64,000 nt of DNA, taken from assembly GCA_964558415.1 (NCBI GenBank), contig CAZLDI010000004.1, positions 786 to 64,785 of the forward strand, in the 5' to 3' direction. Both the position numbers and the translations under genes were made by a program. Shown piece after piece: positions 8,947 through 64,000 of the stretch. The stretch's first letter is position 1; each line of letters starts with the position of its first letter. Under the pieces are notes generated by a model. It worked only from the letters and a program-made list of their open reading frames with translations. It was not told where the DNA came from and searched no databases. This DNA comes from an uncultured Dehalococcoidia bacterium. GTDB taxonomy: Bacteria > Chloroflexota > Dehalococcoidia > SM23-28-2 > RBG-16-64-32.

Positions 8947-9192
8947 ATGATGCGAGCGTATGTGCTCATTGAGTCCGCGGTTGGCAAGGCTAGCTCAGTC
9001 GGTGAAGGTGTGAAGAAGGCAAGCTTCGCGGACGCGAAGGTGCTTTCGGTGGATGCAGTTACCGGGCCATTCGACGTCATTGCCCTCCTGGAATCAGACG
9101 ACCTGGACAAGCTTGGCCGGGCGATCACTGAGGGCATCCAGACGGTGGAGGGCGTGCAGCGCACGACCACCTGCCTGGTGGTGCGGCTGTAG
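8947..9192 (+). CDS. Stand-alone Lrp/AsnC-type ligand-binding (RAM) domain protein
   Basis: The 81-aa product MMRAYVLIESAVGKASSVGEGVKK...VTGPFDVIALLESDDLDKL resembles the C-terminal RAM domain of Lrp/AsnC regulators. No helix-turn-helix is present. Confidence 0.7.
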   Translation: MMRAYVLIESAVGKASSVGEGVKKASFADAKVLSVDAVTGPFDVIALLESDDLDKLGRAITEGIQTVEGVQRTTTCLVVRL

Positions 9193-9264
9193 CTCTCGAC
9201 CGTACGCTGACAACCCGGCATCGGTACACCCTGCCGTGAAGCTGATGCCGGGACACTGGGCGCG

Positions 9265-10560
9265 ATGATAGCCATCGAGGAGGCGCTCGAGAGAATTCTT
9301 CAGCACGTGGAGGTGATGCCTGCCGAAGATCGCGCGTTGCACGAGGCGCTGGGGCAGGTGTTGGCTGAGGACGTCGTGGCGGGGTTCGACATCCCGCCGC
9401 TGGACAACACCGCGATGGACGGATACGCCGTGCGGGCCACCGACACGAAGGGGGCGTCTGAGGCGGACCCGATCGAGCTGGAGGTGATCGGCGAAGTGGC
9501 CGCCGGGTACGTCTTTGACGGAGATGTGCGGCCAGGGACAGCCGTACGCATAATGACCGGGGCGCCGCTGCCAACGGGAAGTGATTCGATCGTGCCGTTC
9601 GAGGAAACGGACGAGCCGTTCGAGAAGCCCCCCGAAGGCAGCCGAAGCCTGGCAGCAAGCGTCCGCGTATTCAAGGCCGCCCAGCCGGGAGCTAACATCC
9701 GGCGCGCGGCGGAGGATATCGCTGCGGGTCAGACCGTAGTCAGGCGTGGCACCGTGCTACGGGCGCCCGAGATCGGCGTGATCGCTTCGGTCGGGCAAGC
9801 CAGGGTGATGGTGATCCGGCGGCCGGTCGTGGCGGTGCTGTCCACAGGAGACGAGTTGCTGGAACCGGGTCAGCCCCGGAGCGCGGCGCAGATTTACGAC
9901 GCTAACGCGGAGAGCGTAAGCGCCCTGGTGCGGCGCTACGGAGGTGTCCCGCGGCCGTTGGGAATCGCGAGAGACACCGTGGACGCGCTGACCGCCAAGA
10001 TCCACGAGGGGCTTGATGCAGACATGCTGATCACGTCCGCGGGGGTCTCGCGAGGCGACTACGACGTAGTCAAGGACGTGCTGATGCGAGAGGGAGAGAT
10101 CGACTTCTGGACCGTCGCAATGAAGCCGGGAAAGCCTCTCGCCTTCGGTTGCTTTGATCGCGACGGAAGGAAAATCCCGCACATTGGGCTGCCGGGGAAC
10201 CCCGTCAGCGCGATGGTGGCTTTCGAACTGTTCGGACGCCCGGCGATGTACAAGATGATGGGGAAGAGAGACTGGCGGCGGCCAACGGTGCGGGCGATCA
10301 CGCGGGACCGGATAGTCAATCGGAACGACCCGAGGGTGTTCCTGGCCCGCTGCATCGTGAGTGAGCGAGACGGACGCTACTACGCGTCTCTCACCGGCGA
10401 GCAGGGCTCTGGAATCCTGACCTCAATGATGAGAGCAAACGCCCTCACGCTAATCCCCGCCGAAGTAGACGTGGTCGAAGCCGGGGAGGAGATCGAAGTG
10501 TTGATGCTGGACTGGAGCCGCGGTGAGGAGTGGGGGTCCTATATCACCGAGCCGGTCTGA
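9265..10560 (+). CDS. moeA: Molybdopterin molybdenumtransferase MoeA
   Basis: 431 aa with PPLDNTAMDGYAV and the MoeA domain organisation. Confidence 0.85.
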   Translation: MIAIEEALERILQHVEVMPAEDRALHEALGQVLAEDVVAGFDIPPLDNTAMDGYAVRATDTKGASEADPIELEVIGEVAAGYVFDGDVRPGTAVRIMTGAPLPTGSDSIVPFEETDEPFEKPPEGSRSLAASVRVFKAAQPGANIRRAAEDIAAGQTVVRRGTVLRAPEIGVIASVGQARVMVIRRPVVAVLSTGDELLEPGQPRSAAQIYDANAESVSALVRRYGGVPRPLGIARDTVDALTAKIHEGLDADMLITSAGVSRGDYDVVKDVLMREGEIDFWTVAMKPGKPLAFGCFDRDGRKIPHIGLPGNPVSAMVAFELFGRPAMYKMMGKRDWRRPTVRAITRDRIVNRNDPRVFLARCIVSERDGRYYASLTGEQGSGILTSMMRANALTLIPAEVDVVEAGEEIEVLMLDWSRGEEWGSYITEPV

Positions 10561-17071: not shown

Positions 17072-17797
17072 CTACGAATAGGTCTGTTTGCCCAATTCTT
17101 CATCCTTAAGGAACAGAAACGGCGCGATGGTTCCAGTGTGCTTTTTCGCCACTGCGCCCAAGCTCCCAATCGTAAATAGCCTCGTGAGGGCACGGGCGAA
17201 CTTTTCGAGCCTAGCCACCAGGTCAGTCGCAATCGTCTCGTAGAGTTCGTCCCACCTGGTTGGGTCAACAAGCGTGCCCACCCATTCGCTGTCTTCCTTG
17301 AGCACGTCAAGTTCCAACTTCTTCCACTCTCGTTCAGGTGACGCTATATCGCTGGGCCGCCCAAGCACCACATTGAGGTCGTGGTATCGGGCGGCCTGCC
17401 CGAAATTCGATAGCATCTCCACCAACCTACGGAGCCGAGGGTCGCCCCTCAAATACTCGATGTCCTTTAGAGCGGCTGGAACACTCTCCACGTAGGCTGG
17501 GTTGAAGCAATGCATCGTTATCTTGTCCAGAAGGCGAACTAGGTCGTGGCCCTTGCTGCCACCGCGAAAAGTCGGGTCCCTTGGAGATGGGTACTCCCCT
17601 GTTTCCTGCAGCGCATGCAAGCAGATGATTGTCTTCATCAGCCGCTCAAAGCCGCTCGCCAGTAAGAGCATTGGCAGGTGATAGAAATCATTGGCCGCAC
17701 CCATTCGCTGAAGGCGTCCAAGACCTGCCTTGATCAGCTCAACCGAAGTCCTAATCTCTTCGCCGAGAGCCACGTGCTGCTCCACCGTCGCTGTCAT
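17072..17797 (-). CDS. Hypothetical all-alpha protein, partner of the SIR2-like gene. It carries a possible HEPN-like R-x5-H motif (FRGGSKGH).
   Basis: The 241-aa ORF is co-directional with the SIR2-like gene and 55 nt downstream of it, preceded by a GGAAGGA RBS. A/T-ending codons are frequent compared with neighbouring genes. Confidence 0.6.
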   Translation of the reverse strand: MTATVEQHVALGEEIRTSVELIKAGLGRLQRMGAANDFYHLPMLLLASGFERLMKTIICLHALQETGEYPSPRDPTFRGGSKGHDLVRLLDKITMHCFNPAYVESVPAALKDIEYLRGDPRLRRLVEMLSNFGQAARYHDLNVVLGRPSDIASPEREWKKLELDVLKEDSEWVGTLVDPTRWDELYETIATDLVARLEKFARALTRLFTIGSLGAVAKKHTGTIAPFLFLKDEELGKQTYS

Positions 17798-17851
17798 CTA
17801 GCTCTGAGTCCTTCCCGTCTTGCTGTCTCAACAATCCTCAAACGTTGGTCG

Positions 17852-18964
17852 CTATTCAGCCCTCAGATACGACTGACATGAGCGGTAGTAGCTGGCTGCC
17901 TTCAAGTTCGCTAGCTGGACATACCGGAGAACCACCCCAGGTTCGGGGTCAATAATCGACACCTCTTTCAATTTGTCATTAGCGGCAATTGTCCGAGACA
18001 GTAGGTTAGCGCTCTCCCAGTCGTTATTGGGGCAGGAGTAACCAAAGATGACGACTCTGTCTGCTTGGCGAAGGCACGCCTCGGCTACTGCCCAAACTTC
18101 CTGAAGGTCGCGATGCAGGATACCCGATTTATGCACGATTGGCGGCACTATAACGGGAAATGCGAAGCGCCGCCGTTCGTCCGGCCATCTCAACGTCATC
18201 GTTGGAAGTAGGTGCTGTCGCCTGGTCACGTAGATAGGGCGCTTGTCATCGAACAACGCTCGGCGTCCAGGATTCCTAGAATTATGCCTGGAATACCAAT
18301 TGAGCGAACCATGCAGTTTCAATACGGCTATGCCAACGAAATCACGATTCTCGCCGAATTGGGCGTCCCCTTTTGGCGGGGCAGTTAGCCGCCCCTTGAA
18401 GGGAAGGCGATAGCATCCTGGGAAAGCAAACGTCTGCCGACCCAGACGCCCTTGGGTCGTTGCGATCTGATGGAGCGCTTTCTCGATCTGAATGTCCTGG
18501 TTGAAACTAATGATTGACAGATTGCCTGGCTGGACGCCTCGATTTAGATGCTGTGTGACGATGCGGTAAAGGAGCGATAGACGGGTCATGGGAACTTTGT
18601 TGGTCGTATCCGCCAACCTACCCACAAATGCCTTCACGAGCGCGAGGAAGGCGTCGAAGGCTGGAGCCTCAAGGTTCCCTCCATAAACGTCGGTGTAGAT
18701 GGCTGCCATTACTCGTTCGAGGGAATCGTAAGCATCCTCCTCGATATCTTGCCTGTAGTTCCATCGCATGTAGTCGATGACGGGGCGAAGGGCGGCACTA
18801 TGCGTCTGAGACGCGGACTTGAAGAAGCCTCGGTCAAGCGGCGGGCGGCGGCGCATAGACTTGCTCATGCAGTCTGCAACCGTGGACCCCGCCCCCAGGA
18901 CAAGGGCTACTCTGTCGTTCCGCATGGCGCGCATTGGGAATTGCCGCTGATACGACTCTGGCAC
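17852..18964 (-). CDS. SIR2-like (SIR2_2/DHS-like NAD-binding) domain protein, a candidate NADase-type defence effector
   Basis: Motifs RVALVLGAGSTV (GAGxS), LKLHGSLNWY and RVVIFGYSCPNNDW match the SIR2_2 family used by ThsA, DSR and SIR2-HerA effectors. It has a GTG start and lower GC3 than flanking genes. Confidence 0.7.
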   Translation of the reverse strand: MPESYQRQFPMRAMRNDRVALVLGAGSTVADCMSKSMRRRPPLDRGFFKSASQTHSAALRPVIDYMRWNYRQDIEEDAYDSLERVMAAIYTDVYGGNLEAPAFDAFLALVKAFVGRLADTTNKVPMTRLSLLYRIVTQHLNRGVQPGNLSIISFNQDIQIEKALHQIATTQGRLGRQTFAFPGCYRLPFKGRLTAPPKGDAQFGENRDFVGIAVLKLHGSLNWYSRHNSRNPGRRALFDDKRPIYVTRRQHLLPTMTLRWPDERRRFAFPVIVPPIVHKSGILHRDLQEVWAVAEACLRQADRVVIFGYSCPNNDWESANLLSRTIAANDKLKEVSIIDPEPGVVLRYVQLANLKAASYYRSCQSYLRAE

Positions 18965-19059
18965 TGATCCGGGGGTCTGTCAAGACGGATGAAGCGACGC
19001 CTGCGCAGCCGGAACCGCTTGGACGAGATCGCGTGGCCACATCTATACTGGCCGCAGCC

Positions 19060-49727: not shown

Positions 49728-50393
49728 TTAGCGACCGTCCTCCGCCTTGTACCCACGCCCCTGCTCAGGCACCTCAACGTCGAGCGCCCGCCACATGTAC
49801 CACGAGCCCACACTCCGGTACGGCTGCCACGGCTCGGCGATCCGGCGCATCTTGTCCGGCTTCGGGGGCTCGCTCAGCCCGTAAGTGATCTGCATCCCCT
49901 TCCGCACTCCCAGGTCGTCGACGGGTAGGACGTCGGGCCGCCCCAGCGAGAACATCAGAAGCATCTCCGCCGTCCAGCGACCGATCCCTTTCACCGATGA
50001 CGCCTTCGCGATCACCTCCTCGTCGTCGAGGTGGTGGAAGCCGTCCTCGTCCAACTCGCCCGAGGCGAACTTCTCGGCCAGGTCTCGCAGATAGACGAGC
50101 TTCTGCCGCGACAGGCCCGCCCCCCGCAGCTCCTCCTCGCTTGCCGCGAGGAACTGCTGCGGCCGGTACCAGTCGTCCTCCTCGACGCCCAGGACAGCGA
50201 GCGTGCGCCTCAGGATCGCGCGGGCGGCCGGTCCTGCCAGCTGCTGAAAGAAGATCGCGCGCGCCAGGTTGCGGAACATCCCGGCCCGCGGCTCCAGCGT
50301 GAACGCGCCGTAGGTGTCGATCACGCGCGCCAGCGCCGGATCAGCGCCGCGCAAGTGCGCGACGGCGGTCTCAGGATCGTAGGTTAGAGGCAT
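49728..50393 (-). CDS. DNA-3-methyladenine glycosylase II (AlkA-like), HhH-GPD superfamily
   Basis: GIGRWTAEMLLMFSLGRPDVLPVDDLGVRKG is a helix-hairpin-helix with the catalytic Asp. Confidence 0.8.
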   Translation of the reverse strand: MPLTYDPETAVAHLRGADPALARVIDTYGAFTLEPRAGMFRNLARAIFFQQLAGPAARAILRRTLAVLGVEEDDWYRPQQFLAASEEELRGAGLSRQKLVYLRDLAEKFASGELDEDGFHHLDDEEVIAKASSVKGIGRWTAEMLLMFSLGRPDVLPVDDLGVRKGMQITYGLSEPPKPDKMRRIAEPWQPYRSVGSWYMWRALDVEVPEQGRGYKAEDGR

Positions 50394-51154
50394 TGGCTAT
50401 CCGCTGCGTCAGCCAACCCATCCAGATCGTTGTCCACGCCATCTGAGCAGGTTAGACCGACAACGCGGTGCTCGGGGGTGCTGCCTGCACTCCGCGGGTC
50501 AGACCCGCGATTCTCCTCGACATATGTTAACCAGCCGTCACCGTCAGCATCTGAGCAGGCGTCCGTCAGACCAAAATCCTGGCAGCCGAGGCGGCATCCC
50601 GCGTCTGGCCGATCCGCATGTCCGTCGCCGTCGTTGTCCATGCCATCGCTACATATGTTGGTGCCGCGCTGTTCATCTGTGGCCAAGAGCTCGGGAATGC
50701 TGAGAGGACTCTGAGGATCGGATCCATAATATGACTCGAATCCGTCAGAATACCCATCGCCATCTACATCAGGCGGAGGGCAGTGCGATGATGGACTAAA
50801 GTCGATGCAATCCCCCGGGAACGGAACGACACGCGGGCCGAGGATACAGCCTCGAACGGCCAGATAGTCTTTGACTCCGGTATAAACGAGAAAGCGCTCT
50901 GCGCCTGCCGAACCCCTGAATACTCCAGGGTTGAAGCTTCCGCTGAACCGTGGTCCAAACTCTATCTGCTCGCCGGTAACGTCATCGCGACGACTATGCC
51001 CGTCGAGCGCGCCTCTGGCGATCGCACTACGGAGATGTCCAAGACAATCGCTTTCTATCTCCATCGCCTCTGCCGCCGACTGTGGAAGCCCAAGGGAACT
51101 GACAGCCACCGCAATCCACACGAATATTGGCAACGCACTCCAAGCTTGGCGCAT
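50384..51154 (-). CDS. Secreted protein with thrombospondin type-3-like Ca-binding repeats (D-x-D-x-D-G-x-x-D-x-x-D/C)
   Basis: Signal peptide MRQAWSALPIFVWIAVAVSSLGLPQSAAEA, followed by repeated CSDGMDNDGDGHAD and CSDGVDNDLDGLADAAD modules. Confidence 0.6.
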   Translation of the reverse strand: MRQAWSALPIFVWIAVAVSSLGLPQSAAEAMEIESDCLGHLRSAIARGALDGHSRRDDVTGEQIEFGPRFSGSFNPGVFRGSAGAERFLVYTGVKDYLAVRGCILGPRVVPFPGDCIDFSPSSHCPPPDVDGDGYSDGFESYYGSDPQSPLSIPELLATDEQRGTNICSDGMDNDGDGHADRPDAGCRLGCQDFGLTDACSDADGDGWLTYVEENRGSDPRSAGSTPEHRVVGLTCSDGVDNDLDGLADAADSQCL

Positions 51155-51187
51155 AGTGTATGGATTATAGGTGACGTCGGGTAAAAG

Positions 51188-54198: not shown

Positions 54199-55866
54199 TC
54201 AGACCGCCGTCGGCGCGCGGTAGTCACCGAAGACCACACGCATGACGCCGCAGATCTCGCCGACAGAGGCGTACGCCTTTACCGCCTCGACGATTGAGGG
54301 CATCAGGCTCTCGGTCCCCCGGCAGGCGTCCTCGAGTCGACGGAGCGAGGCCTCGACGGCTGACTGGTCGCGCCCGGTCCTGACGCGTTTCAGCCGTTCG
54401 ATCTGAGCGCGCTCAGCCTCCGGGTTCACGCGGAAGATCATCTGCGGCTCTTCGTCCTCCTGGCGGAAGCGATTGACGCCGACGATCACCTTCTTGCCGG
54501 CGTCGATTGCCGTCTGGTAGGCGTACGAGGCCTCCTGGATCTCGCGCTGGACGAAGCCCGACTCGATCGCGGCGACTGCGCCGCCCATGTCGAGCACGCG
54601 GTCGAGGTACTCCCAGGCCCTTTGCTCCAGTTCGTCCGTCAGGGCCTCGATGTAGTACGAGCCGGCGAAGGGATCGATCGTGCTGGCGACGCCGCTCTCG
54701 TAGGCGATCACCTGCTGGGTGCGCACAGCAATGCGTTGGGCCTCTTCGGTCGGCAGGGCGAGCGCTTCATCGTAGCAGGAGAGGGCCAGCGACTGCACGC
54801 CGCCGAGAACGGTGGAGAGCGCCTGGAGCGCGGTGCGGATGATGTTCACCTCCGGCTGCTGCGCGGTGAGGGTGGCGCCGCCCGTCTGGACGTGCGTGCG
54901 GAACATCCAGGAGCGCGGGTCCTCGGCCTTGAAGCGCTCACGCATGATCTTCGCCCACATGCGGCGGAGGGCGCGGTACTTGGCGACCTCCTCGAGGAAG
55001 TTGTTCTGTGTATTGAATATCCAGGAGATGCGCGGACCGACTTCATCGACGCTTACGCCCCGTTCCACAGCGGCCTCGATGTAGGCGATCGCGTTGGCGA
55101 AGGTGAAGGCCATCTCCTGGACCGCCGTCGAGCCCGCGTCGCGGATGTGGTAGCCGCTGATGCTGATCGGGTTGAAGCGGGGCAATTCGCGGGCGCAGTA
55201 GGCCATCAGGTCGGCCGCGAGACGGAGGGACGGTTTCGGCGGGTAGATGTAAGTGCCCCTGGCGACGTACTCCTTGAGCACGTCGTTCTGCGCCGTGCCC
55301 GAAACCTGGTCACTAGGCACGCCCTGTTTCTCGCCGACGACGGCGTACATCGCGACCAGCACCGCAGCAGGGGCGTTGATGGTCATCGAAGTGCTGACCT
55401 GATCCAGCGGAATCCCCTCGAACATCGCTTCCATGTCGGCGAGGGTGTCAATAGCCACCCCCACCTTACCGACCTCGCCTTCGGACAGTGGGTCATCGGA
55501 GTCGTAGCCCAGCTGCGTGGGGAGGTCGAAGGCGACTGAAAGGCCGGGTTGGCCCTCCTTCAGCAGGAACTTGAAGCGCTGGTTCGTCTCGTCAGGAGTC
55601 CCAAAGCCGGCGTACTGACGGATGGACCAGAGGCGGCCGCGGTACATGGTCGGCTGAACGCCGCGGGTGTACGGATATTCGCCCGGGTAGCCGATGTCGC
55701 CGTCGTAGTCGCGGCCGTCGTCCCAGGGACCGTAGAGAGGCTTCGATTCAGTTGAGCTGGTGCAGAAGTCAGTGTCCGCACGCTCGCCACCGCGCTCCAC
55801 CGCCTTGCGGTAGCCAGAGTCGAGCCAGCTATCGTGGTCTTGCTTTGGACCGTTGTCCTGTGACAT
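54199..55866 (-). CDS. Methylmalonyl-CoA mutase-family catalytic (large) subunit with no fused B12-binding domain
   Basis: [26 protein letters not shown]...[16 protein letters not shown] is the MCM TIM-barrel domain. The start was moved to the ATG for MSQDNG at 55866. Confidence 0.85.
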
Positions 55867-55954
55867 CTGCGTACCCCCATTAAAGCCCAGCAACAGCAAA
55901 GTTTCAAGGCGACGCCACACCCAAGGAGTATTGTTGAGCTTACGAGGCCTCCGC

Positions 55955-56545
55955 ATGGAACCCACGATAGGCCGACGCCGAAGGATGAGGACCGGAGTCG
56001 TTGTTGCCCTGATGGTTCCACTGATGGTTGCCTTCGTCGCAGCGATACTGGCAGCGCAGGCCGGTCCTCACGACCTTGTGCTGGCGGGGGTGCCGCGGAG
56101 TGTCGTGCAGGGAGTTGAAGTCGTGTCGGACCGCGACGTGGCGGTGACGGCGGATGCAGCCCTGGCGCTGGCCCGAGAAAGGGCGGGGGACCCGAATGCC
56201 GATGTGCGCCAGGTTGTGCTGGGGCGTTACAGCGATCGGTCGTCAGCCGAGCAATGGCGAGAGATGGTGGTATGGTTCGTAAACTTTGCCGATCCCGGAA
56301 GCTTGTCGATGTCGGCTCATTGCGGATTCGAGGCGGATTACTGCAATTGCAACTGGGCCTACCACGCCGGATATGTCGTCGTAGAGATCGATGCAACAGA
56401 CGGGAGCGTGCTCGGCTTATCCTCGGGAGGCGGTTTCATAGATCCGTCGATACCTGCGACCGGCGGTTACCAGCCGACCGATAACGTGCGCGAGCGATGC
56501 CAGCGTCTCCTTGAGGAGCAGCAAGAGATCGGTAACTCTCCTTGA
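55955..56545 (+). CDS. Hypothetical membrane-anchored or secreted protein
   Basis: An N-terminal TM/signal segment [23 protein letters not shown], and a Cys-rich C-terminal part ([12 protein letters not shown]). Confidence 0.45.
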
Positions 56546-56600
56546 CCGCGCGTTCGCGCGCTCAATATAATCCGCCTCGTCACCGCCCGAAGGAGCCTTC

Positions 56601-57629
56601 ATGTACATACTGCAGAAGCTAGGCCGCTTCGTCATCCCGCGCACGGAGCTAACGTATCCCTGCCACCAACTCAAAATGCACCAGAACGCGGCTGTCGCAC
56701 CCGTTGACCAGGTGATGGCCGACTTCGAGGACGCCTGCCCGTACGAATTCAAGGGAGAGGCGAGCCGGGCGACGATGGTGGAGGCGCTGAACAGCGTGGA
56801 CTTCGGCGGGAAGGTGGTTGTGATCCGCCCCAACAATATCCACTCGAAGTACTTCCTTGGAGACATCGAAGCGATCATGCTCGGCGCGGTGGACCGCTTC
56901 CACGGGATAATCCTTCCGAAGACGGAGACGCCGGAGGACATCGTCTTCCTCTCGAGGCTACTCGACGCGATGGAGCAGCGGGCCGGCTGGACGACCCGCG
57001 TTCAGATCGAGGCGCTGATCGAGACGCCGCTGGCAGTGGTGAACGCTTACAGGATCGCGACCGCTTCGGCGCGCATGGCGGGACTGATCTTCGGGATAGC
57101 CGACTTCTCAGCCAGCCTGGGCGTGCGGGAGATGGTGGACGACCAGAACCGCAACTTCCACTACGCCAAGCAGGCGACAGTGGTGGCAGCGAAAGCGGCC
57201 GGGCTGCACGCGGTGGACAACGCTTACCTGCGCATCGTGAGGAAGGACACGCCACCGGACGAGGCGAAGATGATTGAGGCGGGACTCCGAGAAAAGAACG
57301 TGCAGTCGGCAAACCTGGGCTTCGACGGCACGTGGGTGATTCATCCGCAGCAAGCCGAGATCGCTAACGCCTGCTATACCCCCGACGACGAGACGATCGA
57401 GACCCTCAAAGGGGCCGTCGAGGCGTACCACGAGATGGGCGGCGGCTCTATCGTCAATCCGCGCACGGGAGAATTCGACGATGAGGCGACGATAAAAGGC
57501 AAATTGATGGACCTGGCGAAGGCTGCGCAAGGCGGCAAAGTAGATTGGGGCTACCTCTCGGAGATGGCCGCCAAGTCCACCGCCGTGACCGGCTACGACA
57601 TCCTCGCAAAGATGGGCCGTGTGGCGTAG
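56601..57629 (+). CDS. HpcH/HpaI aldolase / CitE family lyase, malyl-CoA (beta-methylmalyl-CoA / citramalyl-CoA) lyase-like
   Basis: AAGGAG RBS then ATG. VDQVMADFEDA...GKVVVIRPNNI...GIILPKTETPEDI aligns with Mcl-type lyases (VDVLCGNLEDA...). Confidence 0.8.
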   Translation: MYILQKLGRFVIPRTELTYPCHQLKMHQNAAVAPVDQVMADFEDACPYEFKGEASRATMVEALNSVDFGGKVVVIRPNNIHSKYFLGDIEAIMLGAVDRFHGIILPKTETPEDIVFLSRLLDAMEQRAGWTTRVQIEALIETPLAVVNAYRIATASARMAGLIFGIADFSASLGVREMVDDQNRNFHYAKQATVVAAKAAGLHAVDNAYLRIVRKDTPPDEAKMIEAGLREKNVQSANLGFDGTWVIHPQQAEIANACYTPDDETIETLKGAVEAYHEMGGGSIVNPRTGEFDDEATIKGKLMDLAKAAQGGKVDWGYLSEMAAKSTAVTGYDILAKMGRVA

Positions 57630-57632
57630 GGC

Positions 57633-58172
57633 GTGGCCGTGACCGAACTGCCGAGGCCGTTGGCGGATATCTCTGAGGCGCTGGCAGGCCAGCGCAGCCG
57701 TCTGATTGACGCGCTGCGGGGCCTGCGCGCGACGGACACAGTCCGGTCACCCGGTGCTGAGGAATGGAGCGCGGCTCAGGTTGTGGACCACCTGCTACTG
57801 GCCGAGGGGTTCACGAACGACCTAACGAAGATGATGGTCGAGAGGGCGGAAGCGTCGGGCGACGCAGCGGGCTTCCCGGCCGACCTTACCGTGTTCGATC
57901 CATTACCGCCACCCCGCGGCATGGAGGCGCCGCCGCCGATCCGGCCCCGGCAGCAGCTCCCACCGGCGGAGCTGATCGCGGCTTTGGAGGCAATGGGCGA
58001 GCGCTCCCGGTCATCGTTCGCGGCGATGGCATCGTTCGACCCGAGGCAATACAGCATGGAGCATCCACTCTTTGGCCTGCTCGACCTTGGGCAGTGGTGG
58101 ATGGTGCACCCAGTGCACTACGAGATGCACATCGCGCAGGCGCAAGAAGCGCTGAAGGCTCGGGGCGAATAA
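57633..58172 (+). CDS. DinB_2 family protein
   Basis: AAQVVDHLLLAEG...WMVHPVHYEMHIAQ shows the His-triad pattern. Confidence 0.65.
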   Translation: MAVTELPRPLADISEALAGQRSRLIDALRGLRATDTVRSPGAEEWSAAQVVDHLLLAEGFTNDLTKMMVERAEASGDAAGFPADLTVFDPLPPPRGMEAPPPIRPRQQLPPAELIAALEAMGERSRSSFAAMASFDPRQYSMEHPLFGLLDLGQWWMVHPVHYEMHIAQAQEALKARGE

Positions 58173-58175
58173 CCG

Positions 58176-59378
58176 GTGCGCTTCTACGAATTCGAAGCGA
58201 AGACCCTGCTCGCGCGGGAAGGCGTGCGCCTGCCAGCCGGTGGTACCGCGAAGACTCCTGCGGAGGCGAAGCGACTGGCGGCGGAGCTCGGCGGGCCGGT
58301 TGTCCTCAAGTCTCAGGTGCTTTCGGGCGGGCGGATGAAAGCCGGCGGCGTGAAGTTTGCGGACACGCCGGAAGAGGCGGCAGACGCCGCCGAAGCGATC
58401 CTGAAGCTGCCGATTCGGGATCAGATGCCGGTCTGCGTCTCCGTTGAAGCAAAGGCCGCAGTCGCGAAGGAATACTACCTGGGTGTGACGTTCGACGGAA
58501 TCGCCAAGCTACCGGTGATGATCTTCAGCGACATGGGTGGCATCGACATCGAGCAGGTCGCAGAGGAGCACCCGGACCACGTCGCGAAGCGCCACTTCAG
58601 CACGTTGACCCCGTTCTCCGATTTCGAGGCGAAGGAGCTCGTGGCTTCGCTGGGGATCAAGGGCAGCGAGCTCACGGCGATCACGGGGACGGTGACGCGG
58701 CTGGTGCAGGCGTTCCTGCGTTACAACCTGACACTGGCAGAGATCAACCCGCTGGGACAGCTAATGGACGGTTCGTTTGTCGCCCTCGACTGCCATCTGG
58801 ATATGGAAGAAGAGGCGCGGGACCGCCACCAGGATGTCCTCGGCGAGCTCGGCATCTCGCCCGATGACGCGAGGCAGGGACGCCCGCCGACGGAGTTCGA
58901 GATGCGGGGCGTGCAAGTGGATACGTCCGATCATCGCGGCGTCGCAGGGCGCGTCGTCGAGTTCGATGGCGATTTGGGCCTGGTGATCGGCGCAGGCGGC
59001 GGTAGCCTGACGATCTTCGACGCTGTGCAGAAGTACGGCGGACGGCCCGCCAACTACTGCGAGATAGGCGGGAACCCGAGTGTGAAGAAGGCGTGCGAGC
59101 TAACGAAGCTGATCCTGAGCAAGCCGGGCGTGAAAAAGATCGCCGTGATCATGAACGTTGTGAGCAACACGCGGGTGGATATAGTGGCCCGGGGAGTGAT
59201 CAAAGGCGTCGTCGAGTCGGGCTTCGAACCGGCCGACAAGATCGCCATCTTCCGCATCCCGGGCGCGTGGGAGCAGGATGGGTTCTCGATCCTGCGGAAG
59301 TACGGAGTGGAGTACTGCGACCGCAGCGTCTCGATGTCGGAGGCGGCGCGACGAGCTGTGGAGAAAGTGGGTGAGTAG
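58176..59378 (+). CDS. Succinyl-CoA synthetase beta-subunit-like ADP-forming acyl-CoA ligase (ATP-grasp)
   Basis: GTG start. The GPVVLKSQVLSGGRMKAGGVKF ATP-grasp domain plus a CoA-ligase domain. Confidence 0.8.
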   Translation: MRFYEFEAKTLLAREGVRLPAGGTAKTPAEAKRLAAELGGPVVLKSQVLSGGRMKAGGVKFADTPEEAADAAEAILKLPIRDQMPVCVSVEAKAAVAKEYYLGVTFDGIAKLPVMIFSDMGGIDIEQVAEEHPDHVAKRHFSTLTPFSDFEAKELVASLGIKGSELTAITGTVTRLVQAFLRYNLTLAEINPLGQLMDGSFVALDCHLDMEEEARDRHQDVLGELGISPDDARQGRPPTEFEMRGVQVDTSDHRGVAGRVVEFDGDLGLVIGAGGGSLTIFDAVQKYGGRPANYCEIGGNPSVKKACELTKLILSKPGVKKIAVIMNVVSNTRVDIVARGVIKGVVESGFEPADKIAIFRIPGAWEQDGFSILRKYGVEYCDRSVSMSEAARRAVEKVGE

Positions 59379-59699
59379 ATGCCGGCCTACGTGATCGCGC
59401 AGATGCAAGTGAACGACCCAGAGAAGTACCGCATGTACGCATCCAGGGTACCGCCGACTGTTGTCGGCTATGGCGGGCGCTTCCTCGTCGCCAGCGACAC
59501 TGCCGACGTCAAAGAAGGCGCGCAGACCTACGCGCGCACCGTGATCGGCGAGTTTCCAACAATGGAGGCGGCCCGAGCCTGGTACGAATCAGCCGATTAC
59601 CAGGCGGTTCTACCGTTGCGGCTAGCATCAACGACCGGAATTCTCTTCATCGTGGAGGGCTTCACGCTGCCTCCCGTAACCGGAGACCAAGTCGAATAA
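59379..59699 (+). CDS. DUF1330 family protein
   Basis: 106 aa reading MPAYVIAQMQVNDPEKYRMYASRVPPTVVGYGGRFL. Confidence 0.65.
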   Translation: MPAYVIAQMQVNDPEKYRMYASRVPPTVVGYGGRFLVASDTADVKEGAQTYARTVIGEFPTMEAARAWYESADYQAVLPLRLASTTGILFIVEGFTLPPVTGDQVE

Positions 59700-59714
59700 C
59701 GCCGCGCTCACGCC

Positions 59715-60635
59715 ATGTCAATTCTGATCGACGAAAACACGACCTTCATCATCCAGGGCATCACCGGCCGCGAGGCGGTGAACATGACGCGCGAGTGCCT
59801 GGACTACGGCTCCAAGGTCGTCGGCGGCGTGACGCCGGGACGCGGCGGCCGCGATGTGTACGGAGTGCCGGTCTACGACACGGTAAAGGAGGTCGTCACG
59901 AAGGAGCGCGTTGATGGCTCCGTGATCACTGTGCCGCCGGCCTTTGTCCGCGACGCCGCGTTCGAGGCGATCGAGAACGGCGTCAAGCTGCTGGTGATCG
60001 TCACGGAGCGTGTGCCGCGCATGGAGATCGCACAGCTCTTGGAATTGGCGCGGCTGCGTGGCACGCGACTCATCGGGCCCAACTGCCTTGGCATGATCAC
60101 GCCGGGTAAGTCGAAGATGGGCGGGATCGGCGGCCCCGCGGCGAACACGCGCCAGGCGTATCGTCCGGGGCACATCGGGGTTATGTCGCGCAGTGGCGGC
60201 ATGACGACGGAGATATCGAACTCACTCACCGCCGCCGGCCTCGGGCAGAGCACTGCGGTTAGCATCGGCGGCGACCCGATCATTGGCTCCACGTACGCAG
60301 AGTTGATGCCGTTGTTCGAGGCGGACCCCGAGACGCACGCTATTGTCATCTACTCCGAGCCGGGCGGTCCCATGGACGCGCAACTAGCTGAGTACGTCAA
60401 GAAGACCAACTCGCGGCTGCCGATCATCGCCTTCATGGCCGGGCGGTTTATGGACAAGATGCCCGGCATGCGCTTCGGCCACGCCGGCACGATCGTCGAG
60501 GGCAAGGCGGACACCGCAGCCGAGAAGATCCGCCGGCTAAATGACGCGGGGATCTCGGTGGCCGAGGAGATCGCGCAGATACCGGAGATGGTCAAATTGA
60601 AGCTGGCATCGACTAAGGAGACTGGAACGAAGTGA
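59715..60635 (+). CDS. Succinyl-CoA synthetase alpha-subunit-like CoA-binding subunit
   Basis: CoA-binding Rossmann domain plus the phosphohistidine-loop region GHAGTIV. Confidence 0.85.
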   Translation: MSILIDENTTFIIQGITGREAVNMTRECLDYGSKVVGGVTPGRGGRDVYGVPVYDTVKEVVTKERVDGSVITVPPAFVRDAAFEAIENGVKLLVIVTERVPRMEIAQLLELARLRGTRLIGPNCLGMITPGKSKMGGIGGPAANTRQAYRPGHIGVMSRSGGMTTEISNSLTAAGLGQSTAVSIGGDPIIGSTYAELMPLFEADPETHAIVIYSEPGGPMDAQLAEYVKKTNSRLPIIAFMAGRFMDKMPGMRFGHAGTIVEGKADTAAEKIRRLNDAGISVAEEIAQIPEMVKLKLASTKETGTK

Positions 60636-61423
60636 GCGTAACCCAGCTCCCATGGCTCCATCGCTATCGCGGCCAGCGATTCCTTAAGGAAATTAGGAAG
60701 GCTGAAGAACGATGCGCGAAGGAAACGTGGGGAACGCTGCCGAAGACCGGCGAGCGCACGCCACGCTCCCTGTCCGCCCTAGGCGACTTGCTTAGGCTGA
60801 CCTACAGCGCCTCCAGTTGCTCGTGGGGGTGTGCAGGCAGTGACCATACAGCGAACTATCTGGCCGGACGCGTGGCAACGCTAACGTCCGCGTCGCTACG
60901 ATGCTTGTCGGCAGGCTATTATGATGAGTCACTGGTGCTGGCGCGATCCGTGGGAGAGTTGGCGAACCTACTTTTGCTATTTGCACGCTATCCAGACGAA
61001 TACGTCCGCTGGAAGACCACCACACCCAAAGAGCGCCGCCAAGCTTTCTCTCCGGTTAATGTGCGGATGTCGTTGGAGCAAGCCCTAGACTTTGTTCCGG
61101 TTGACCACGTTCGTTACGAAGCGCTGAGCGAAATGGGTGTCCACGTAACTCCAGACACTATACCCCAGGCCCACAATCCGGCTCGCCGCGCCGTTCTCGG
61201 GCACATCTTCCAATTGCCGGGAGGCATCATGGCGCTAACGGAGCTCTGCATCGCCACATCAGTGGCCGCCCACTCCGTATCCAAGCTCATGAACATACCA
61301 ATGGGCGTGCGTGACGATTTCGATGCCTGTGCGCGAGAACTCATCGACGCACTTCCCAACATCGACATCTTGAGCATTCCCAAACTTCTGAGATCGCTTG
61401 CTAGGGAGCCATCGCAAGAATGA
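60632..61423 (+). CDS. Hypothetical protein in the lower-GC island
   Basis: The GTG start overlaps the sucD-like stop. 263 aa, with more A/T-ending codons than the core genes. No family was recognised. Confidence 0.5.
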   Translation: MSVTQLPWLHRYRGQRFLKEIRKAEERCAKETWGTLPKTGERTPRSLSALGDLLRLTYSASSCSWGCAGSDHTANYLAGRVATLTSASLRCLSAGYYDESLVLARSVGELANLLLLFARYPDEYVRWKTTTPKERRQAFSPVNVRMSLEQALDFVPVDHVRYEALSEMGVHVTPDTIPQAHNPARRAVLGHIFQLPGGIMALTELCIATSVAAHSVSKLMNIPMGVRDDFDACARELIDALPNIDILSIPKLLRSLAREPSQE

Positions 61424-61460
61424 AGGTCGATTCACGTTCCGAAAGAGAAGATAGGTAGCC

Positions 61461-61697
61461 GTGGCGATGTTCATCCGCGTGGACATGGAGCCATCGGTCG
61501 CGTCGGACCGTGAGCTGGCGAAGAAACTGGTGGAGGTCTGCCCCGTGAACATCTTCGCTCAGGCCGCGGACGGCTCTGCGACCATCGTCGAGGAGAACCT
61601 CGATGAATGCGTTTTATGCGATCTTTGTGTGCAAGCTGCGCCGCCGGGCGGGGTGCGAGTCCACAAGCTGTACGATGGGACAATGCTGAAGCGGTAG
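61461..61697 (+). CDS. Small ferredoxin-like protein with a single CxxCxxC...CP cluster motif
   Basis: VEVCPVNIF and ECVLCDLCVQ. Confidence 0.45.
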   Translation: MAMFIRVDMEPSVASDRELAKKLVEVCPVNIFAQAADGSATIVEENLDECVLCDLCVQAAPPGGVRVHKLYDGTMLKR

Positions 61698-61934
61698 GCC
61701 CGCCTAGTCCCCTCATCCTTCAACATCGCGACAACTCCATGTCGTGATGGCGGCCGCCGTGATACATCGCGCCGCGCTGGGTACCCTCGTGTCTGTACGC
61801 GACCTCTGACACGATCCCGCGCGGCCGGTAGTCTCCGCGGTTGTCCAGATCAAGGTCGATCTCGCGCAGGTAATCGAGGTCTGAGTCGCGGACCGGCCGT
61901 AGGGTCAGGTTTTGCCCTTCAGCAATGCTATCTC

Positions 61935-62999
61935 CTATAGGTTCATCGCTGCTAGTACTGGCCGTCGCGCGCGCACGCCCAGCGTGCCCGGCTGGATCGT
62001 CACGCCCGCGCTCCACTCGTCCATCAGGGCGATCAACTCAGCCTTGCCGATCAGCTTCAGAAGCCAGGTCTCGTGCACTAACATCGTCGCGCTTACGATG
62101 TGTCGCAGTGCCAGATGCACAGCGCGCGACTGATTCGGAGAATCGGGGCCATCTGTAAACATGGTGGCGTCTTCGTAGTTACATCGGATTCTCAGTCGAT
62201 AGAGATAGTCAAGCAGGGTCGCCGGTCTCGTCTTCACTTCGATGTCACGTTTCTCTGCGGCGGTCAATCGGGGGCGCGGAAATTTCGGCATTACCTGCGG
62301 CTGACGACCCCTTGCGACTCTTTGATCCTGCGATTCCGACCACTTCTTGCGGAGCTCAGCCTGCTTTCGATCTCTCTTATCCCTTGTGGCCTCGATTAGT
62401 CGTTCCTCTCTGGTCTTTCGCAACGCTTGGCCCGCTAGGTCCCAGCAATTTCCCCAGTCTGCCTGAGTCCAAGGATTTATGTCGGGCGCAAACACGTGGT
62501 CTCTTGGAGGATTGCAGGATCCAGCGGTACTCCATCCGAAGGACCAGGGTGGAAGAGGGACGGTTTGGTTGACCCAGAAGTCGCAGTATGAGCGTTGAGT
62601 CTTCGCGTGGCTGTCTGGTCGCAACTGTCCGCGCGCCACGAAGACGGCTTGGAAGACGTGGTAAGAGGCATAGTAAGCCTGAACTGAACCCCAATTGTTC
62701 GCCATGCCAACCAATTCATCATCCACCACCTCTCCAGTAACCTCCAATAACAATTCTGTGGTCCATCCATTCTTGAGGATCGCCGCGACTGAGCCAATCG
62801 TTCTTGCATCCAAGCGTCTTGGAGTCAGTCGACCAAACGCAGGCAGATTCGATATCGCACTCGTGATTCCACCGTACACTCGATCCCTCGGCACCATTAG
62901 AGAGCGGCGCGGACTGGCCGCGTACTCGTCGATGATTATATCCAGTGCCGCCAGATAGTTGTGATGCGCGAGAAAGGCACCCCTTGGGTCACTCGCCAC
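61935..62999 (-). CDS. Hypothetical protein in the lower-GC island
   Basis: 354 aa. It starts 9 nt downstream of the MaoC-hydratase stop. A/T-rich third positions. No family was recognised. Confidence 0.55.
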   Translation of the reverse strand: MASDPRGAFLAHHNYLAALDIIIDEYAASPRRSLMVPRDRVYGGITSAISNLPAFGRLTPRRLDARTIGSVAAILKNGWTTELLLEVTGEVVDDELVGMANNWGSVQAYYASYHVFQAVFVARGQLRPDSHAKTQRSYCDFWVNQTVPLPPWSFGWSTAGSCNPPRDHVFAPDINPWTQADWGNCWDLAGQALRKTREERLIEATRDKRDRKQAELRKKWSESQDQRVARGRQPQVMPKFPRPRLTAAEKRDIEVKTRPATLLDYLYRLRIRCNYEDATMFTDGPDSPNQSRAVHLALRHIVSATMLVHETWLLKLIGKAELIALMDEWSAGVTIQPGTLGVRARRPVLAAMNL

Positions 63000-63008
63000 C
63001 AGCGTCCG

Positions 63009-64000
63009 TTATCTCCTTTTCGGCATAAGGACCGTATAGTCCAGATCCAGAACGACGTTCGGATGGTGCGATTCTCGGCCTGATTCGGGGTCCCGTGCCT
63101 TGAGCTCGACGGGTTCCTCGTTGGGGTCCACGTTCTTGATGCCAACGAGGCGCAGGCGCAGCGCCCCGACATCAGTGCGCCCGAGATCGATGCGCTCCAA
63201 TACCTCAGTCCACGCAAAGAGCGTGTCACCGCCCACGGTCGGGTTGGCGTGCGTACCGGCGTTAAAACCGAGGATGCGTATGGCGTTCTCCAGACCGTCA
63301 TTCGAGATCGCGTGGGCGAGGGAGATGATGTGGCCGCCGTAGATTATCCGCGTGCCGAGCTTCGACTTCTTCTGGAGCATCTCGTTGAAATGGACGCGGG
63401 CGTTGTTTTGATACAGACGCGTCGCCATCTGGTGCTCCGCGGACTCTATCGTGAAGCCCTGCGGATGCACGATGCGCTCCCCTGGTTCGTAGTCTTCCCA
63501 GAACGCCTGCCCCCCCGTCGCCGCCGCGTCGAACTTCGACAGATCAAGCTCCTGGGGAATATGCAGGTTTTCGGTGGCCACGCGGGCAGGCAGCTCCGGC
63601 GTATCGTCCGCTTCACTGTTGTCACCAGGTTTCCGCTTGTTTACCATCGCCCAGCGGTAGAACTGAAGCACAGGCTCACCCCGCTGATTGAAGCCGCGCG
63701 TGTGCACCCAGACGATGCCCACGTCTGGCCGGGTGGTGTCGCGGCGGCCAATGACTTCCGTTTCCGCGCGTAACGTGTCCCCTGGGTAGACGGTGTTGAG
63801 GAAACGCATATCGGCGTAACCCAGGTTGGCCGGGGAGTTCAACGATACGTCGGGGACAGCGCGGCCGAAGACGATGTGGAAGACCAGCATATCGTGGGTC
63901 GTCTCTCGCTCGAACCCGAGCGACCGCGCGAACTCTCGCGAGCAGTGCAGCGGCCGCCGGTCGCCGGTGAGGGCGATGTAGAGCGCGAGGTCGCCTTCGG
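63009..64000 (-). CDS. MaoC-like double-hotdog (R)-specific enoyl-CoA hydratase, mesaconyl-CoA/itaconyl-CoA hydratase-like. The 5' end lies beyond the window.
   Basis: The frame remains open to the window end and encodes ALTGDRRPLHCSREFAR (the MaoC GDxNPLH-type motif) upstream of the tracked ATG. Two hotdog halves are visible. Confidence 0.8.
   Translation of the reverse strand, partial: EGDLALYIALTGDRRPLHCSREFARSLGFERETTHDMLVFHIVFGRAVPDVSLNSPANLGYADMRFLNTVYPGDTLRAETEVIGRRDTTRPDVGIVWVHTRGFNQRGEPVLQFYRWAMVNKRKPGDNSEADDTPELPARVATENLHIPQELDLSKFDAAATGGQAFWEDYEPGERIVHPQGFTIESAEHQMATRLYQNNARVHFNEMLQKKSKLGTRIIYGGHIISLAHAISNDGLENAIRILGFNAGTHANPTVGGDTLFAWTEVLERIDLGRTDVGALRLRLVGIKNVDPNEEPVELKARDPESGRESHHPNVVLDLDYTVLMPKRR

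Follow-up and report, generated by a model that had tools for sequence, protein, structure and literature searches.

The question raised by this locus is how two genes of atypical composition came to stand among genes of acyl-CoA metabolism in an uncultured Dehalococcoidia bacterium, and what kind of proteins they encode. The two genes, here termed A and B, lie near the end of a 64,000-nucleotide (nt) stretch of DNA (the window; contig CAZLDI010000004.1, assembly GCA_964558415.1, positions 786 to 64,785) and are separated by a small ferredoxin-like (Fd-like) open reading frame (ORF) (Table 1). A preliminary description of the sequence had assigned all three to a single lower-GC island, either an inserted accessory or toxin-like module or a set of lineage-specific pathway components. 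The analysis presented here points to a different history, in which we have reasonable though by no means full confidence: A and B are probably unrelated genes that reached the 3' ends of two convergent operons by two separate horizontal single-gene insertions, with B encoding an HEPN-type and A a DUF5677-like protein.

Table 1. Features of the region between the sucD-like and MaoC-like genes (window coordinates; aa, amino acids)
Feature	Position	Strand	Description
Left junction, insertion A	60596..60635	+	novel 3' tail of the sucD-like gene (...TKETGTK, stop)
ORF A	60632-61423	+	263 aa, all-helical
Ferredoxin-like ORF	61461-61697	+	78 aa; CP ... CxxCxxC, enough for one 4Fe-4S site
GNAT (Acetyltransf_3) pseudogene remnant	61732..61926	-	residues 1-47 fused in frame to ~145-164
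ORF B	61935-62999	-	354 aa
Junction, insertion B	63000..63026	-	novel 5-codon tail of the MaoC-like gene (...MPKRR, stop) and 9-nt spacer

For comparison, 80 related loci (L008-L087) were fetched with the sucD-like protein, mostly from metagenome-assembled genomes of Dehalococcoidia and other Chloroflexota, with some from Myxococcota, Binatia and Thermoleophilia, and nine window proteins were mapped onto them. Neither A nor B was present at any of the 80 loci. In the two closest relatives (L008 and L009, 89% sucD identity) the sucD-like, Fd-like and MaoC-like genes are contiguous, with gaps of 20-30 nt. The synteny check that the preliminary description had proposed thus bears out its view that A and B are foreign genes embedded in metabolic operons. 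The same comparison gave a different result for the Fd-like gene, which lies directly 3' of sucD in approximately 78 of the 80 loci, including those from Chloroflexota, Myxococcota, Binatia and Thermoleophilia, is of ordinary composition and gives weak Fer4 matches in family scans. It thus belongs to the core of the sucCD-like operon and lies outside the inserted DNA, which refutes its inclusion in the island; what had been described as one island resolves into two single-gene insertions flanking a core gene. The encoded protein looks like a conserved, apparently undescribed small partner of the sucCD-like acyl-CoA ligase.

The positions taken by A and B are occupied by other genes in relatives. 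Many of them carry alpha/beta-hydrolases or SnoaL-like proteins in the slot between sucD and the Fd-like gene, a hydrolase-cyclase fusion was found in the slots of some, and eight have a GNAT acetyltransferase directly after MaoC. In one relative (L034) the slot between the Fd-like and MaoC genes holds a 361-aa protein of low GC content at third codon positions (GC3) (9141-10226, minus strand) with weak matches to PD-(D/E)XK, NucS and Shedu SduA_C; thus, a different nuclease-type accessory gene stands at the position of B. None of the slot genes was related to A or B, which ruled them out as diverged homologues of either. Given this variety, both slots are evolutionarily flexible and have been filled otherwise in the lineage of the window.

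Nucleotide homology to three relatives (L008, L009 and L018) ends at approximately 60593-60595, 40 nt before the sucD stop. Homology to relatives returns at 61455, where 6 nt remain to the Fd start, ends again at approximately 61704 and returns at 63019-63022, and the insertion breakpoints were mapped to within a few nucleotides. With tblastn, the match to the 306-residue sucD-like protein covered residues 1-298 and no more, and the C-terminus of the MaoC-like protein, which reads ...DLDYTVL before the stop in L008, reads ...DLDYTVLMPKRR before the stop in the window. The GTG start codon of A (60632-60634) overlaps the TGA stop of the sucD-like gene (60633-60635), and that of B (62997-62999, minus strand) lies 9 nt beyond the TAA stop of the MaoC-like gene (63009-63011); the ORF coordinates and this start geometry had been noticed before, and both were confirmed. 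The Shine-Dalgarno sequences of both genes (AAGGAG) are located inside the novel tails of the upstream genes, at 60615-60620 for A (11 nt before the GTG) and at 63013-63018 for B (13 nt before the GTG). Since the tails that bear these sites are novel, the best interpretation of the GTGA overlap and of the 9-nt gap is that both arose as by-products when the insertions overwrote the original stop codons; evolved translational coupling is then unnecessary to explain either.

A further trace of the insertion of B is the remnant of a GNAT gene directly downstream of it. Using the GNATs found 3' of MaoC in the eight related loci as tblastn queries, the remnant was matched with 65% identity to the GNAT of L012 (E = 9e-20); its start codon is gone and approximately 95 codons are deleted. 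Therefore, B was inserted exactly at the junction of MaoC and GNAT, and the GNAT gene decayed afterwards. A weak 'NarE' match of the mechanical ORF 61720-62016 was discarded, as this ORF is the GNAT remnant.

The compositional shift that first drew attention to A and B is real. Their GC3 values are 0.64 and 0.63, respectively, compared with 0.79-0.85 for the flanking acyl-CoA genes and a window mean of 0.76, and the regional GC content dips from approximately 0.63 to 0.55-0.58 around them. In a codon-adaptation ranking of 61 putative window genes, both fall into the low tail (B 4th lowest, A 8th lowest) with z values of approximately -1.6 to -2.0. The anomaly is of moderate size, and the 'collapse' of codon bias asserted in the preliminary description, while reflecting a genuine deviation, was overstated. 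A and B are absent at the orthologous position, the flanking synteny is kept and their composition is atypical, which is the pattern of horizontal insertion; each insert consists of a single gene and does not correspond to a classical mobile element or genomic island.

The DNA carrying A and B recurs in two other samples with 100% and 99.99% identity and identical arrangement. The copy in JGI 3300010391 (L007), equivalent to window positions 54877-63238, differs by one base, outside A and B. In the public gene calls for this copy, A has 172 aa and B has 118 aa; these short versions were rejected as a gene-calling artefact, homology backing the full frames of 263 and 354 aa, and the shortening is ascribed to the atypical codon usage that misled annotation. 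On sequence grounds both are genuine genes, despite the lack of any direct match in Pfam, NCBIfam, PADLOC and PHROGs and of any meaningful match of the family A and B profiles to PDB sequences. A phage origin was likewise considered for both and rejected, as a search of 2.9 million viral contigs gave a single match to B and none to A.

The earlier statement that A and B show no family signatures and are unassignable is correct for direct scans of the two sequences; fold and profile methods do assign B and, weakly, A. A structure model of B (predicted local distance difference test score, pLDDT, 95.2) has a predicted four-helix up-and-down HEPN core fold formed by helices 65-88, 94-122, 262-276 and 288-317. 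Between core helices alpha-2 and alpha-3 lies an insertion of approximately 140 residues, which includes a long charged helix (185-229, 45 residues, rich in Arg, Lys and Glu), and the core is further elaborated by N- and C-terminal extensions. The family comprises more than 270 homologues and, in an exhaustive search, 1,026 representative clusters; full-length members are uniformly 340-360 aa long and carry no fusions. The HEPN profile PF05168 was matched at E <= 1 by 24 of 42 family members, with coverage limited to profile positions ~25-58, and the best match (P0104) scored 29.7 bits against a curated cutoff of 22 (E = 7.6e-07).

The putative active site of B contains the motif R268-x-R270-x3-N274-Y275-E276-D277 (R-x6-D), with H114 and H131 located upstream. 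In the family alignment R268, R270, H131, E82, E310 and Y275 are invariant, and H114, N274 and D277 are nearly so. A corresponding variant has been described for the HEPN-T clade (AF0298/2hsb), in which Asp takes the place of the His in the Rx4-6H motif and a conserved His is located upstream; this clade clusters with restriction-modification (R-M) operons (Anantharaman et al., PMC3710099). The R270-x6-D277 pattern with upstream H114 and H131 is the variant reported there for HEPN-T/AF0298. We infer that B, as a stand-alone protein, belongs to the HEPN superfamily and there to the HEPN-T/2hsb type.

Among known systems, the HEPN-T clade (PF05168; AF0298/2hsb from A. fulgidus, TT1696/1ufb from T. 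thermophilus and ST0689/1wol) is the type closest to B. The known members are approximately 120-130 aa long, whereas B, with approximately 350 aa, has in addition the insertion between alpha-2 and alpha-3 with its 45-residue charged helix and the terminal extensions, and it lacks an MNT partner. The B of the window scores below every Pfam threshold, including that of PF05168, and no existing family model covers it. The HepT/MntA (HEPN/MNT) type VII toxin-antitoxin system (Shewanella SO_3166/SO_3165; 7ae2, 8xdj) combines a canonical Rx4H motif with an adjacent AMPylating MNT antitoxin; B, in contrast, has neither this motif nor an MNT neighbour. AbiV and other single-protein HEPN abortive-infection genes resemble B in being (nearly) stand-alone and in occurring in variable genomic regions. 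AbiV is likewise without the motif His and has a His upstream (PMC3710099). It is approximately 200 aa long, and neither B nor A showed a relationship to these genes at the sequence level.

The genomic neighbourhoods of B homologues contain Mrr together with a type I R-M system and integrases in one case; Eco29kI, Dcm (C5 methylase) and Vsr immediately upstream in another; RepB primase, HTH_17 and an integrase in a third; and transposases in a fourth. In a census of 111 immediate neighbours at 83 loci, the families recovered comprised Mrr, HindVP, type I specificity subunits, Dcm, PIN, Cap15, patatin, DUF4238, integrases and Cro/C1-ImmA pairs. These contexts are defence or mobile regions and suggest that the B family belongs to the defence-island or mobile accessory gene pool. 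A conserved partner was not found when the neighbours from the 83 loci were clustered, the largest cross-locus cluster having 4 members, and no NTP_transf-type family that might supply an MNT antitoxin was among the 25 commonest families listed in the Pfam census of these neighbours. In the window itself, B adjoins MaoC and the GNAT remnant. At one of the loci examined for B homologues (within L088-L167) the B-family gene adjoins a genuine DUF5677 protein (E = 8.6e-21), which the A-family profile misses; this co-location is probably a coincidence in a variable region.

Gene A is less readily placed. Its family, with 13 close homologues and 86 proteins found by profile search, shares the conserved motif SCxWGCxGGDH (C63, C67, D71, H72) followed by Y97-D98-E99, R105, E109, N112 and H171. 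Across 40 members C63, C67, H72, Y97-D98-E99, R105, E109, N112, W127, Y162, H171 and P178 are invariant, and an Rx4-6H motif is not among these invariant residues. The conserved pattern of Cys, His, Asp, Glu and Arg suggests a metal-binding or catalytic site. A DUF5677 (PF18928) annotation is precomputed for 5 of the 86 proteins. Upon rescanning, A relatives gave marginal scores against PF18928 (24.6-28.3 bits versus a cutoff of 27.1; E = 2e-6 to 3e-5) over profile positions ~3-100 of 166, and one of the seven tested (P0144) passed the curated cutoff; the A of the window gave no match, and the A-family profile failed to detect a genuine DUF5677 protein. Both A and DUF5677 proteins are helical, approximately 200-300 aa long and found in variable regions, and A differs by an extra N-terminal region with a CxxxCxxxDH motif. 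Sequence comparison thus tentatively places A as a divergent sister group of DUF5677, and the fold assignment is equally tentative. A Foldseek search of A against the PDB returned nothing significant, AbiV (9bj7) appearing weakly in the list. Homologues of A were found with ParE/RelB and a Lamassu LmuB-like gene, adjoining a HerA-type ATPase, and with IS110 and toxin-antitoxin genes. DUF5677 has been flagged as enriched near serine-recombinase-linked defence loci, and five ORFs were reported there to be protective, without the tested DUF5677 ORF among them (PMC12632615). With low confidence, A may be assigned to the same variable or defence-associated gene pool as B.

In the proposed course of events, the two insertions hit precisely the 3' ends of the two convergent acyl-CoA operons (citE-like, sucCD-like, MaoC/Ich-like). 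Each insert brought its own Shine-Dalgarno sequence and replaced the final codons of the upstream gene; B came to lie between MaoC and GNAT, and GNAT has since decayed. A promoter-like site was not found in the region, and its lone terminator-like site is no more than expected by chance; transcription of A and B therefore most likely depends on read-through out of the operons that host them. By sequence and predicted fold, B is most likely a metal-independent endoribonuclease and an abortive-infection or toxin-type effector. Once triggered, it would cleave cellular or invader RNA, probably as a dimer, and its large insertion and terminal extensions could act as sensor or auto-inhibitor in place of a separate antitoxin. 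The earlier suggestion of an inserted accessory or toxin-like element is supported to this extent: both genes are insertions of accessory type and B, with its HEPN fold, is of the toxin/defence type, but the two do not form one module.

Several observations weigh against this reading. At the junctions of either insert no target-site duplications or terminal repeats above chance were found; in the window neither insert is accompanied by an integrase, a transposase or a tRNA, and no recombinase gene lies between sucD and MaoC. The B of the window did not match PF05168 even at E <= 1, and the matches of other family members are confined to helix alpha-2. The canonical Rx4-6H motif is absent from the family alignment, so the catalytic activity of B is not assured. 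An antitoxin, sensor or partner gene was not found for B, and the neighbour census was built on crude ORF calls with most neighbours lacking annotation.

Two repeats near the boundaries of A are within chance expectation: an 18-nt imperfect inverted repeat (78% complementary) at 60652-60669 and 61395-61412, near both ends of the gene, and a 10-nt exact direct repeat, GGAGCCATCG, at 61405-61414 and 61487-61496, in the 3' end of A and the 5' end of the Fd-like gene. Both coincide with insertion boundaries, though at chance level.

The host cluster (56601-60635 and 63009-64000) comprises genes for a citE/malyl-CoA-lyase-like protein (also RipC/Ccl-like), a DinB-family protein, a sucC-like protein, a DUF1330 protein and the sucD-like protein, and, encoded on the other strand, a hydratase of the MaoC type similar to mesaconyl-CoA or itaconyl-CoA hydratase (RipB/Ich similarity). 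Its gene content resembles that of a C5-dicarboxylate pathway of the itaconate, mesaconate or citramalyl-CoA type. The DinB and DUF1330 genes are interleaved variably among relatives.

Different readings of A and B start from this operon context. If both were parts, specific to this lineage, of the acyl-CoA pathway (itaconate or mesaconate type), their embedding in operons with a geometry resembling translational coupling would be accounted for, and the same slots in relatives do hold ordinary accessory enzymes (alpha/beta-hydrolase, SnoaL-like, GNAT). This proposal, one of the two readings offered in the preliminary description, is contradicted by the absence of both genes from all 80 loci with the same gene cluster and by the occurrence of their homologues in unrelated defence or mobile contexts; furthermore, an HEPN fold is not that of a metabolic enzyme, the insertion of B destroyed the downstream GNAT, and the codon usage of both genes is atypical. 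We consider it highly improbable. Acquisition of A and B together as one toxin-antitoxin-like or defence module, with or without the Fd-like gene, is hardly more convincing. The two genes are convergent, belong to different operons and are separated by the core Fd-like gene; no A-family gene lies near any of the 83 B homologues, no B-family gene was found at the one A-homologue locus searched for it (L001), and the A-family profile misses the DUF5677 neighbour of a B homologue. Profile-profile comparison with hhalign showed no relationship between the families, which never co-occur in the loci examined and differ greatly in size (86 A proteins versus more than 1,000 B clusters). A similarly small probability is assigned to the notion that A and B are recently acquired, non-functional passengers on their way to decay. 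This would fit their unameliorated codon usage, the lack of a promoter belonging to either gene, the pseudogene state already reached by the adjoining GNAT and the shortening of both genes by one gene caller. In contrast, both frames are unbroken and do not differ between three independent samples, every residue invariant in the respective family is kept in the A and B of the window, and each gene has a strong AAGGAG Shine-Dalgarno sequence at workable spacing.

The alternative that deserves most attention concerns B alone, which might be a non-catalytic HEPN protein that binds RNA or nucleotides or acts as a regulator, perhaps domesticated to modulate the adjacent operon. HEPN domains without the motif can have binding or regulatory functions, an example cited being MtlR, whose gene lies in a metabolic operon (PMC3710099); MtlR and the KNTase-type substrate-binding domains would be the models for such a role. 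The absence of the canonical motif, the tight coupling to the MaoC operon with its 9-nt gap and the failure to find an antitoxin all fit this proposal. Against it stand the retention of the invariant R268, R270, H131, E82, E310 and Y275 and of the nearly invariant H114, N274 and D277, in a pattern that fits the 'alternative active site' HEPN-T type and not a degenerate domain (PMC3710099). Moreover, homologues of B lie beside R-M and mobile-element genes and not in metabolic operons, and B is missing from all 80 relatives bearing the same operon. A non-catalytic B is accordingly unlikely, though clearly less so than the three readings weighed above, and two independent insertions, with B as a probable HEPN RNase-type defence or toxin gene, remain the reading we prefer.

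Other genes of atypical composition occur elsewhere in the window. A second low-GC3 pair (17072-18979, minus strand) encodes proteins of 241 and 375 aa without Pfam matches; inspection by eye showed SIR2-like motifs (GAGxS, KLHGSxNW) in the 375-aa protein and a GHDLxxLL-type helix in its 241-aa partner. The pair could be another defence-type insertion. It was tested for paralogy to A and B and found to be unrelated. The lowest GC3 of the window (0.57) belongs to an ORF at 50384-51187 (minus strand, 267 aa), whose sole match is to a bacterial TSP3 repeat and which may be another gene of atypical composition.

Beyond the individual assignments, the B family may represent a previously unrecognised single-gene HEPN abortive-infection or defence system with a built-in sensor or auto-inhibitor, and the A family a second effector type with a Cys/His metal site; this extension is speculative, and we give it a low probability. 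If the single-gene HEPN reading is true, A and B would illustrate how single defence genes can be slotted into the 3' ends of housekeeping operons in a recombinase-free manner and rely on the transcription of these operons. In any case, the branch of the HEPN superfamily to which B belongs is sizeable, distinct in architecture and without a family model, and it occurs beside restriction-modification systems, which makes B a reasonable candidate for defence screens, and the Fd-like gene is re-read as a widely conserved partner of the sucCD-like ligase instead of a foreign gene. The locus is an unusually clean case of gene-sized insertion at operon ends, in which the breakpoints can be seen together with the overwritten stop codons and the decay of a downstream gene, and it can help to explain the spread of accessory and defence genes among uncultured Chloroflexota where mobile-element machinery is not evident.

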